A DNA stretch of 58,850 bases. Source: a bacterium. GTDB lineage: Bacteria > Patescibacteriota > Minisyncoccia > Phycocordibacterales > UBA9973. Positions 22,321 through 58,555 of this stretch are shown here, one piece after another; position 1 is the stretch's first letter; every line of letters starts with the position of its first letter. The translations under genes were made by a program, and so were the position numbers. Below the pieces are notes generated by a model. The model saw only the letters and a program-made list of their open reading frames with translations. It was not told where the DNA came from and did not search any database. The DNA is taken from positions 1 to 58,850 of the forward strand of contig JAYTNB010000050.1 in NCBI GenBank assembly GCA_043748495.1, given 5' to 3'.

Positions 22321-22341
22321 TTTGCTATAATAGAAACACTA

Positions 22342-22418
22342 TCCTGTTAGAGATAATGGGGGAATAAAATTAATATTAAATAATAAGATGAGAATAGATA
22401 TTTCTTATCTCTAACGGA
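22342..22418 (+). promoter_or_regulatory. 14-bp-stem leader hairpin (GTTAGAGATAA...TTATCTCTAAC) with embedded 8-codon uORF, ending 1 nt before the NYN start codon
   Basis: TCC(T)GTTAGAGATAA (22342-22356) pairs with TTATCTCTAACGGA (22405-22418). The uORF ATG is at 22388 and its TAA at 22412-22414. The promoter TGCTATAAT is at 22323-22331. Confidence 0.55.
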
Positions 22419-55939: not shown

Positions 55940-56602
55940 ATGGCTATAAATGCAAAAGCAGCACAAGATTTCGTACCAATCAAAGAAGTTCGCGATGGTG
56001 TCATCGTCCTAAAAGAGGGTGGTATGCGTGCTGTTTTGATTTGCTCTTCTATAAACTTATCGCTCAAATCAAGCGATGAACAGATCGCTATCATTAACTC
56101 TTTTCAATCATTCCTAAATAGTTTAGATTTCTCGACACAAATCGTTATGCAATCACGCAGACTAGACATTCGTCCATACCTCTTAACCTTAGAAAATAGA
56201 CAAAAAGAACAAACCGAACCTCTTTTAAAAATACAAACAAAAGAATACATTGAATTCATCAGATCTTTTACTGAAGAAGTAAATATAATGACCAAAACAT
56301 TTTTTGTTGTTGTACCTTTTAATGGAACAATGCTCGGTAATAAAATTAGTGGCAACGAGGGTGTTCTCGAAAGTTTATTATCTAGCAAGAAAAATAGCAA
56401 TCAAGAAACAAACAAAATGGGAAGTGACCTAGCAGCTTTTGAAGAAAACAGAAGTCAGTTGGATCAAAGAATTGGTGTTATAATTGGTGGATTGGGCCGT
56501 TTGGGTGTCAAATCAAGTCAGTTAAACACAGAAGAAGTTGTCGAACTTTTCTATAAAACATTTAACCCTGGCGACATCAGTCAAGGAATAAAATTACAAT
56601 AA
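55940..56602 (+). CDS. protein resembling the N-terminal (non-ATPase) domain of Gram-positive-type VirB4/TraE proteins
   Basis: QDFVPIKEVRDGVIVLKEGGMRAVLICSSINLSLKSSDEQIAIINSFQSFLNSLDFSTQIV follows the pattern seen at the N-termini of conjugative VirB4-like ATPases. No ATPase motifs. TGCTATAAT followed by 6 nt precedes the ATG. Confidence 0.45.
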   Translation: MAINAKAAQDFVPIKEVRDGVIVLKEGGMRAVLICSSINLSLKSSDEQIAIINSFQSFLNSLDFSTQIVMQSRRLDIRPYLLTLENRQKEQTEPLLKIQTKEYIEFIRSFTEEVNIMTKTFFVVVPFNGTMLGNKISGNEGVLESLLSSKKNSNQETNKMGSDLAAFEENRSQLDQRIGVIIGGLGRLGVKSSQLNTEEVVELFYKTFNPGDISQGIKLQ

Positions 56603-56609
56603 GATGGGT

Positions 56610-56726
56610 CACGTTAGAATACACGATCACATTTTAATCAAAAAATAGAAATATGAAAAATCACAAGAAAAATATTAATAATATAACCAAGCAAAATCAC
56701 AAACTGATCGTGATCTGCTTCTAACG
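56610..56726. mobile_element. 117-nt MITE-like element with 8-bp terminal inverted repeats, bracketed by an 8-bp direct duplication
   Basis: CGTTAGAA (56612-56619) pairs with TTCTAACG (56719-56726). A second inverted repeat is CACGATC (56622-56628) with GATCGTG (56706-56712). AGATGGGT occurs at 56602-56609 and 56727-56734. Confidence 0.55.
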
Positions 56727-56728
56727 AG

Positions 56729-58555
56729 ATGGGTATTTTTTCATCATTATTTGGAGGTAAAAAAGAAGAAAATACAAAAATGAATCCTATCATGCCTGTT
56801 TTACCGCAAGAGATCTACAAAGCGGCCAAGCTTGAACTCCAGGATATCATCGCTCCTTCAGCATTGCAGATAACCCCAAAGTCCCTGAACCTCGGGGATA
56901 AAATCGCTAGAACCTTCTTTGTTATTTCTTATCCACGATATTTGTCAGATAATTGGTTTTCGCCGATTATAAATCTCGACAAAGTTTTTGATGTTTCTAT
57001 TATGATTCATCCTATCGAAACAGCGGAAATACTAAAAAGCTTTCAAAAGAAAGTAGCTGAAGTTCAAAGTCAAATATCGGTTAGAACAGAGAAAGGATTA
57101 GTGCGTGACCCGATTCTCGACACAGCTTATAATGACCTAGAAAATTTACGTGATAATCTAATACAAGCCCAAGAAAAAATGTTTAATGTTGGTTTATATA
57201 TAACAGTTTATGCAGAAAACGAAAACGACTTGTTTAAAATAGAAACAGAAATAAAATCTCTACTTGAATCAAAGTTAATCTACTTGAAACCAGCTCTTTT
57301 CCAACAGAACGAAGGTTTCAAAAGTGTGATACCACTCGGTACAGATATCCTTGGTATCCATCAAAAATTAAATACTGAGCCACTCTCAAGCATCTTTCCT
57401 TTTGTATCTTTTGACTTAACATCAAGTAATGGAATCCTCTATGGGGTTAACCGACATAATTCCAGTCTCATAATATTTGACCGCTTCTCATTTCCAAACT
57501 ACAACTCCATCATATTTGCTACATCCGGTGCTGGTAAGTCTTATGCGACAAAACTTGAAATCATAAGAACTCTTATGTTCGACACTGAAGTTATAGTGAT
57601 AGACCCAGAAAAAGAATACGAATACTTGACTGAAGCTGTTGGTGGGAGGTTTTTTAACATTTCATTGTCTTCTGACCATCATATAAATCCTTTTGATTTA
57701 CCTATACCTGGTGCGGATGAAACAGGAACAGATGTTCTACGCGCAAATACTATCAACCTAGTGGGTCTTTTCCGTATTATGTTGGGAGGACTCACCCCAG
57801 AAGAAGATTCTCTTGTTGATCGTGCTATTACTGAAACATACGCGCTAAAAGACATAACAGCAGAATCGAATTTTGCAAACATCGAACCACCATTACTCTC
57901 AGACTTTGAAATGGTACTCGCTGGTATGGAGGGGAGTGAGTCGGTGTTGTCGAGACTCGCGAAATATACTCATGGATCTTGGTCTTCGTTTTTAAACAGA
58001 CCATCAAATGTAGATATAAACAGGAAATTCGTAGTTTTTTCTGTTCGAGATATGGAAGATGAATTGAAACCAGTTGCGATGTATATCGTTACTCACTATA
58101 TTTGGAATTCAATACGTAAAAATATAAAAAAGAGACTATTGGTTGTCGATGAAGCTTGGTGGATGATGAAATCAGACGACACAGCGTCTTTCCTGTATTC
58201 TATCGCTAAGCGTGGACGTAAATACTATCTTGGGCTTGCAACTATAACTCAAGATGTAGGCGACTTTATGAAGAGTCCTTATGGTGTGCCGATTATAACT
58301 AACTCATCTATTCAGTTGCTTCTGAAACAGTCTCCATCAACAATGGACGTACTCCAAAAAACTTTTAACTTAACTGATGAAGAAAAATATTTGTTATTAG
58401 AAGCAAATACTGGAGAGGGTATATTCTTTACAGGACTAAAACACGTCGCAGTAAAAATAATAGCTTCATACACAGAAGACCAGATTATAACTTCTGATCC
58501 ATCTCAAATACTATCTATTAGAAAATCAAAAGATGAACAAATATCTAAAAACTAG
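56729..58555 (+). CDS. virB4: VirB4/TrbE/TraC-family type IV secretion ATPase
   Basis: Walker A FATSGAGKSYATK and Walker B RLLVVDEAWWMM (DEAW is typical of VirB4). The N-terminal CagE/TrbE-like domain has RTFFVISYPRYL, and TQDVGDF follows. Confidence 0.9.
   Translation: MGIFSSLFGGKKEENTKMNPIMPVLPQEIYKAAKLELQDIIAPSALQITPKSLNLGDKIARTFFVISYPRYLSDNWFSPIINLDKVFDVSIMIHPIETAEILKSFQKKVAEVQSQISVRTEKGLVRDPILDTAYNDLENLRDNLIQAQEKMFNVGLYITVYAENENDLFKIETEIKSLLESKLIYLKPALFQQNEGFKSVIPLGTDILGIHQKLNTEPLSSIFPFVSFDLTSSNGILYGVNRHNSSLIIFDRFSFPNYNSIIFATSGAGKSYATKLEIIRTLMFDTEVIVIDPEKEYEYLTEAVGGRFFNISLSSDHHINPFDLPIPGADETGTDVLRANTINLVGLFRIMLGGLTPEEDSLVDRAITETYALKDITAESNFANIEPPLLSDFEMVLAGMEGSESVLSRLAKYTHGSWSSFLNRPSNVDINRKFVVFSVRDMEDELKPVAMYIVTHYIWNSIRKNIKKRLLVVDEAWWMMKSDDTASFLYSIAKRGRKYYLGLATITQDVGDFMKSPYGVPIITNSSIQLLLKQSPSTMDVLQKTFNLTDEEKYLLLEANTGEGIFFTGLKHVAVKIIASYTEDQIITSDPSQILSIRKSKDEQISKN

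Follow-up and report, generated by a model that had tools for sequence, protein, structure and literature searches.

Miniature inverted-repeat transposable elements (MITEs) of bacteria include the Correia/CREE elements of Neisseria, the pneumococcal RUP, and the enterobacterial ERIC. The IS200/IS605 and REP/RAYT systems rely on HUH Y1 transposases and leave the target site unduplicated. Free-standing GIY-YIG homing endonucleases (T4 Seg, I-TevI-like) are proteins of about 200-250 aa with a DNA-binding domain and one cognate site; to our knowledge, they have no terminal repeats, target duplications, or miniature derivatives. Small GIY-YIG genes bracketed by dispersed NTS/SRM hairpins were described as Ssn, nucleases characterized by site-specific cutting of single-stranded DNA (Chenal et al. 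2025, PMC11893778). The authors likened the NTS-ssnA-NTS layout to an insertion sequence (IS) and cited IS200/IS605 with REP/RAYT as an analogy; target duplication, start-codon placement, and Patescibacteria are not reported in that paper (PMC11893778). We analyzed a stretch of a patescibacterial genome (order Phycocordibacterales, assembly GCA_043748495.1, contig JAYTNB010000050.1; the window is this whole stretch of 58,850 nucleotides) in which a short insert directly precedes a virB4 gene. With a probability of roughly 0.85, this insert is a decayed miniature belonging to a family of mobile elements; in this order of bacteria with ultrasmall genomes, the family is common but unevenly distributed. 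No description of the element family was found in a full-text literature search, and it is apparently undescribed.

The virB4 junction in the window and in related genomes

The insert lies between the two open reading frames (ORFs) of a split VirB4-like ATPase (Table 1). The 608-aa ORF scores 374.5 bits against NF045971 (CD1110-family VirB4, cut-off 325) over profile positions 182-732 of 752 and has a Pfam match to the TraG P-loop domain; the 220-aa ORF upstream matches positions 2-114 of the same profile and also TrsD. VirB4 is encoded as two separate ORFs in 30 of the 30 congeners examined; therefore, the insert is not the cause of the split.

Sixty related genomes were searched with the upstream protein, and the junction was read at 30 loci from the same genus. 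An initial annotation, made from the letters of the window alone, had proposed a non-autonomous transposon that landed on a tight start-codon junction. The relatives bear this out through their empty sites, homologous inserts, and dispersed copies. At 23 of the 30 loci the junction is tight and carries no insert: the stop codon is followed, after -4 to 9 nt, by ATG(GGA/AGT/TCA...)ATATTTTCATCA. The window's insert is common to its own genome (G000) and the near-conspecific G005 and G008 (protein identity of G005 and G008, 98-99%), and in all three it is flanked by ATGGGT on both sides. Homologous inserts of 115-120 nt with the ends CCCGTTAGAAGT... and ...ACTTCTAACGGG are found at the same point in G031, G034, and G064, where the flanking repeats are ATGAAT/ATGAAT, ATGAGT/ATGAGT, and ATGGGT/ATGGGA, respectively. 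In G025 and G015, the site is occupied by a 276-nt element (CCCGTTAGAGAT...ATCTCTAACGGG). Its single ORF encodes an 84-aa GIY-YIG protein and ends in a TAA within the right repeat, 4 nt upstream of the virB4 ATG. Left of this full-length element, an ATG-to-ACT change is seen in both genomes (ACTGGT).

The comparison also redraws the insert's borders. The octamer AGATGGGT, which the initial annotation took as the target duplication, is present at 56602-56609 and 56727-56734; however, the true repeat is the 6-nt ATGGGT, because G005 reads TAAT-ATGGGT, with a T at the position of 56603; the extra AG on the right belongs to the worn end of the element (GAG, where the family has GGG). Similarly, the proposed 117-nt element at 56610-56726 is a real insert, but homology to intact relatives places its right boundary at 56728 and its length at 119 nt; the span becomes 56609-56729 if the outermost T...A pair is included. 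The remaining features hold: the perfect 8-bp terminal inverted repeats CGTTAGAA (56612-56619) and TTCTAACG (56719-56726) are present, as are the second inverted pair, which extends to 8 nt, the stop of the upstream gene, the 14-codon ORF opened by the left copy of the duplication, and the 23-codon ORF, which terminates within the right terminal repeat, with a TAA 4 nt upstream of the virB4 ATG. The 12-nt ends of the window copy agree with the consensus at 9/12 and 10/12 positions. In intact relatives, the terminal inverted repeats are perfect over 12-14 nt, and the inner arms read GTCGCGATCGC / GCGATCGCGAC. The alignment of homologous inserts assigns the window copy to subgroup D, which has the inner repeat GTCGCGATCGC; its decay shows in the change from CCC/GGG to CAC/GAG and in a frameshift.

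Table 1. Features of the virB4 junction and further family copies in the same genome (window positions unless a contig is named)
Feature	Position	Strand	Basis or remark
N-terminal part of split VirB4-like ATPase, 220-aa ORF	55940..56602	+	stop TAA 56600-56602
Left direct repeat ATGGGT, relic of the original virB4 start and codon 2	56604..56609	+	
14-codon ORF opened by the left repeat	56604-56648	+	stop TAG
Non-autonomous element, 119 nt, subgroup D, decayed (probable)	56610..56728	+	alignment with G031, G034, G064, G024, G005, and G008 inserts; family census
Element ends CACGTTAGAATA and GCTTCTAACGAG	56610-56621, 56717-56728		consensus CCCGTTAGAAGT and ACTTCTAACGGG
Left inner inverted-repeat arm CACGATCA	56622..56629	+	pairs with 56705-56712
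Right inner inverted-repeat arm TGATCGTG	56705..56712	+	
23-codon ORF	56653..56724	+	begins 4 nt past the TAG of the 14-codon ORF
Right direct repeat ATGGGT, working virB4 start codon and codon 2	56729..56734	+	
VirB4-like conjugal-transfer-type ATPase, 608 aa, C-terminal part of split gene	56729..58555	+	
76-nt family copy	22343..22418	+	directly before ATG 22419 of NYN-domain gene
50-nt hairpin, family-like ends CCAGCTTAGAAAC ... GTTTCTAACGGG	53431..53480	+	between the stop of a 904-aa gene and the GIY-YIG gene
84-aa GIY-YIG gene, element ends decayed	53503..53757	+	76% identical to the nuclease of full-length elements
98-nt copy, perfect CCCGTTAGAAGT ends	contig C27:2954-3050		adjoins ATG of a minus-strand gene; repeat ATGA

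On their own, the features listed at the junction are not beyond chance, and their significance appears from the comparison with relatives. Two further exact direct repeats of 8-9 nt occur within the same 500 nt around the insert, BLAST with the insert found no second copy in its own genome (596 kb, 74% complete), neither the window copy nor intact relatives matched any Rfam entry, and as single-stranded DNA the window insert folds no better than its shuffles (z = -1.16), whereas intact relatives reach z = -4.5 and -3.7. Nevertheless, the possibility that the octamer and the inverted repeats arose by chance in an AT-rich spacer is refuted by the homologous inserts with the same ends, which other species carry at the virB4 site and at dozens of other sites; we give it practically no weight.

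The distribution of filled and empty sites bears on how often the junction was hit. Carriers and empty-site species are intermingled in the tree calculated from the two VirB4 ORFs, so that at least four gains or losses are required; a well-supported clade places G034 amid three species whose site is empty. In each lineage the relic copy of the repeat reproduces that lineage's own codon 2 (GGT, AAT, or AGT), which argues for a hot spot with at least three separate insertion events and not for one inherited insert. It seems improbable to us that the virB4 junction was hit only once, long ago, and that this insertion was then passed on by vertical descent and precisely lost on several occasions. 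The carriers of miniature copies do all fall in one clade of 13 species (support 87), and the miniatures at the virB4 site all belong to subgroup D, a minority type elsewhere; an old single insertion with later losses or re-insertions would be compatible with this. However, relic and codon 2 agree within lineages and differ between them, so that a single insertion needs parallel changes in both copies, and both the nested position of G034 and the full-length element of G025 and G015, which belong to another clade, speak against it.

A family of elements at start codons

The end motif CCCGTTAGARNT (CCCGTTAGAR) was searched in 41 congeners, with the reversed motif as control. The motif had 221 matches and the control 17; most matches form plus/minus pairs about 105 nt apart, i.e., elements of about 116-119 nt. 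The further copies with the same termini that the initial annotation proposed to search for do exist, at 0-35 matches per congener genome and as diverged copies in the window's own genome. The terminal inverted repeats of the family read T-CCCGTTAGA(R)... / ...TCTAACGGG-A. When about 200 genomes of the order were compared, the terminus TCCCGTTAGAR proved abundant yet very patchy, and within genera the counts can be as uneven as 49 vs 2, 42 vs 0, and 30 vs 0.

Filled and empty sites can be compared directly between sister species. Five of six insertions in G015 are empty in G025, and three pairs read as follows: ATGGAT became ATGGAT[118 nt]ATGGAT, ATGACA became ATGA-T[118 nt]ATGACA, and ATGGAA became ATGG-T[116 nt]ATGGAA. 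In these pairs the target duplication is seen directly, and the T is not derived from the target. The regions of two subgroup-D copies (G005, G008) are absent from sister assemblies. As read from the comparison of filled and empty sites, the family would have been mobile recently.

Forty pairs were sampled by the motif only. In 38 of these the copy adjoins the start of an ORF that remains open for all 66 codons available, and the orientation relative to the adjoining gene is identical in all of these, with the right end against the start codon. A rough null was taken from the frequency of ATG[AG][AGT] at called starts and in intergenic DNA of the window genome; about 22% of copies would be expected at starts, and the binomial probability of the observed placement is p = 5e-23. 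We then compiled 51 insertion sites, full-length copies included. A direct repeat of 4-6 nt that begins with the start codon is found at 35 of the 51 sites. The base left of the element is T at ATG starts (49 sites) and C at GTG starts (2 sites). Since it is complementary to the first base of the start codon in 51/51 sites, the outermost pair belongs to the element; consequently, the working start codon takes its first base from the last position of the element. Site L095 (G024:C2:124295-124392) fits this terminal-base model: the relic is ATGAA, the working start is GTGAA, and a C stands left of the element. Here, the host gene seems to have exchanged its ATG start for GTG through the insertion.

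At about a third of the roughly 51 sites, a TAnAAT hexamer ends 6-8 nt before the relic ATG (e.g., L089, L041, L069, and L109; window 22326-22331). This spacing is the geometry of leaderless mRNAs, and one idea is that an open promoter complex or the 5' end of a leaderless gene might mark the target. The miniatures of each subgroup contain a subterminal hairpin in their right halves (e.g., L074, L084, L072), and its loop repeats TCTAA: GGAAGTC-TAA-GGACTTCC, CCCATC-TAA-TGAGGG, and GATAATC-TAA-AGATTATC. They could be a putative recognition structure for the nuclease. At L046 (G039:C6; G039 belongs to a different family within the order), one host ATG is preceded by a tandem of a miniature copy and a full-length GIY-YIG copy, with only ATTAAT between them. 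A likeness to integron attC sites (GTTAGAG / CTCTAAC here, GTTRRRY / RYYYAAC there) was considered and rejected: the ORF is not followed by an attC structure, and the layout is a different one.

In the window's own genome, the motif search found only three further diverged copies or relics (Table 1). Because such diverged copies were seen only by motif search, a judgment from BLAST alone would have wrongly dismissed the insert. The 76-nt copy holds an 8-codon ORF ending in ISYL-TAA, the same C-terminus as that of the GIY-YIG protein; its orthologue in G005 (L109) has perfect CCCG...CGGG ends and the repeat ATGAT. The copy sits between a TGCTATAAT box (22323-22331) and the NYN ATG, and its relic start reads ACT-AT (22338-22342), compared to ATGAT in G005. 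The ATG-to-ACT change is thus common to the NYN site and the virB4 site of G025 and G015, an unexplained coincidence. The 50-nt hairpin folds at -10.7 kcal/mol as DNA (z = -4.85). The hairpin and the GIY-YIG gene that follows may together represent an old or domesticated full-length copy (53431-53757); the same arrangement is found in G008. Orthologues of the copy on contig C27 are present in G005:C5 and G008:C23. The other GIY-YIG paralogues of the genome (37-50% identity) are without family ends.

The nuclease of the full-length elements and possible translation across the insert

Full-length elements of about 276-278 nt contain one gene only, which encodes an 84-aa UPF0213/Slx1-like GIY-YIG nuclease and whose TAA falls within the right repeat, 4 nt short of the host ATG. 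The 276-nt elements, two of them at the virB4 site itself, have matching ends and are candidates for the autonomous partner that the initial annotation proposed to look for, but their gene is that of a GIY-YIG nuclease and not of a classical transposase. In addition to G025 and G015, full-length copies are found before different genes in G011, G031, G034, G019, and G039. G011 has three, two of them 450 nt apart. At L069 (G011:C3:21275-21994), two full-length elements occupy the start codons of consecutive genes, and the second is flanked by the 9-nt repeat GGGATGGAT.

The nuclease is a bare GIY-YIG domain (PF01541; for the gene in the window, 53.8 bits over profile positions 2-71 of 78). Its nearest solved structure is that of UPF0213 BH0048 (1ZG2, E = 1.8e-9), and its likeness to Slx1 is faint; the score against TIGR01453, the profile of group-I-intron endonucleases, is 26 bits, under the cut-off of 56. 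Inside the repeats no gene other than GIY-YIG was found, and in particular no DDE, HUH, serine, or tyrosine transposase.

The comparisons show that the element landed on the start codon of the C-terminal VirB4 ORF and duplicated ATGGG(T), and that the right copy serves as the virB4 start. Beyond this, they suggest the following course of events. The nuclease of full-length copies would supply the cutting activity in trans, the staggered cut would fall at A|TGNN, and the last base of the element would become the first base of the working start codon. Ribosomes could then cross the insert by termination and re-initiation along a relay of the 14-codon and 23-codon ORFs to virB4. We tentatively propose, at somewhat less than even odds, that the 84-aa GIY-YIG protein is the sole enzyme of a new class of transposon of about 276-278 bp that targets and rebuilds start codons, and that the virB4 insertions are kept as a coupling relay.

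Movement of the elements by the nuclease is an inference from its association with them. A close GIY-YIG copy is present in 7 of 13 genomes with at least four termini, compared to 1/24 of the rest (p = 0.0011), and the last 18-19 nt of the nuclease ORF are kept in the miniatures of one subgroup. The elements might instead be mobile by another enzyme or by host recombination or repair, with the GIY-YIG protein a passenger or a separate selfish nuclease; we consider this unlikely, though a serious contender. It would account for the six of the 13 genomes with at least four termini that have no close GIY-YIG copy, one of which, G032, has 11 termini and no GIY-YIG match at E <= 1e-15. Furthermore, we know of no transposase among the GIY-YIG enzymes, which are hydrolytic nucleases, and of no strand transfer by them. 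For Ssn, only an IS-like architecture has been noted (PMC11893778). In contrast, a mere passenger is harder to reconcile with the stop codon of the nuclease lying in the right repeat, with the terminal stretch of its ORF retained in miniatures, with the lack of any other gene between the repeats, and with the way the close nuclease tracks copy number.

The downstream virB4 ORF seems to have no promoter or ribosome-binding site of its own and would rely on coupling. All four lineages with a miniature at the virB4 site keep an unbroken ORF or a two-ORF relay that begins at the relic ATG and ends in a TAA 4 nt ahead of the working virB4 ATG. In G034 and G064, a single 38-codon ORF opened by the relic ATG spans the entire element and stops at the TAA of the right repeat. 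In the window, the relay reads TAA-G-ATG, 14 codons, TAG-AAAT-ATG, 23 codons, TAA-CGAG-ATG of virB4. A frameshift is bridged by a second start in the window copy and, independently, in G031 (TAATG overlap). Only 1% of shuffles of the window copy's interior contain such a path. Coupling of virB4 through the insert is plausible, and a translated path may be kept at this site; with all four carriers in a single subgroup, the evidence for the relay is no more than suggestive. Translational bypassing of the T4 gene 60 type between the two GGT codons was rejected: the right copy, on which the ribosome would land, carries an ATG of its own, and the first stop comes 14 codons past the left ATG.

The same path could be taken to indicate that the insert is mainly a regulatory leader of virB4, a hairpin with an upstream ORF acting as attenuator, conserved by the host for that role. 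Its fixation in the species, the path in all four carrier lineages, and the low shuffle rate for the window copy would agree with this; nevertheless, we consider it very improbable. The insert is absent in 23 of the 30 congeners with the same split virB4, and the same element precedes many unrelated genes. Its weak fold, the lack of a constraint by codon position, and the lack of an Rfam match also speak against a leader, and a regulatory role would be at most a secondary exaptation.

Several observations count against our reading of the insert as a copy of a mobile family that is moved by its nuclease and kept for coupling. The insert is in every metagenome contig of the species (95-99% identity), with no empty alleles or joints. 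Given its worn ends and weak fold, the window copy is probably immobile now, that is, old and fixed in its species. No movement of the family was observed as such. Across the family the relay is not enriched (7/32 observed, 3.7 expected), and among homologues, differences in the 23-codon ORF are spread over the codon positions as 71/84/86; therefore, there is no coding constraint, and the peptide is not conserved as a protein. To these we add the restriction of virB4-site miniatures to subgroup D, the genomes with termini and no close nuclease, and the hydrolytic chemistry of GIY-YIG enzymes.

Significance and comparison with described systems

The comparisons document a family of very small mobile elements in bacteria whose genomes, at 0.4-1.3 Mb, would fit ultrasmall organisms of the CPR type. 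Their placement on start codons exceeds what a 5-nt target and selection would give, which points to a way of recognizing starts of translation or transcription. If the nuclease does move the elements, GIY-YIG would be added to the known transposase chemistries, and few autonomous elements known would be as small. The insert in the window parts two VirB4 halves that are otherwise tightly coupled, and it offers a natural test case for re-initiation relays.

Among described systems, IS200/IS605 and REP/RAYT resemble the family in their very small size, hairpin ends, and dispersed derivatives without a gene; in contrast, no HUH protein is encoded in the elements described here. Like homing endonucleases, the elements bring a GIY-YIG nuclease gene in between or next to host genes, where it behaves as selfish DNA. 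However, the protein here has 84 aa and consists of the nuclease domain only, and copies stand before dozens of unrelated genes.

Ssn is the closest published system that the literature search brought up. The likeness lies in a single-domain GIY-YIG protein (84 aa here, about 100 aa in Ssn) whose gene is bracketed by a repeat dispersed over the genome. The SRMs of Ssn are self-contained hairpins of 20-50 nt, whereas the ends of the present elements pair across the gene; self-contained hairpins of the family motif do exist, in the window (53431-53480) and in G011:C3 (45 nt). Ssn belongs to the cd10448 clade, and the structure nearest to the element nuclease, UPF0213 BH0048, suggests a different clade.

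The elements are similar to MITEs in their length of about 100-150 nt, inverted ends, short target duplication, many patchy copies, lack of a gene, and a longer partner with the same termini. The window copy itself, at 119 nt, has inverted repeats, a target duplication, and dispersed relatives, and it contains no transposase gene. Unlike in MITEs, the only product of the partner is an 84-aa GIY-YIG protein instead of a DDE or another classical transposase, insertion is nearly always on start codons and in one orientation, and the element's outermost base pair at the same time provides the first base of the start codon.

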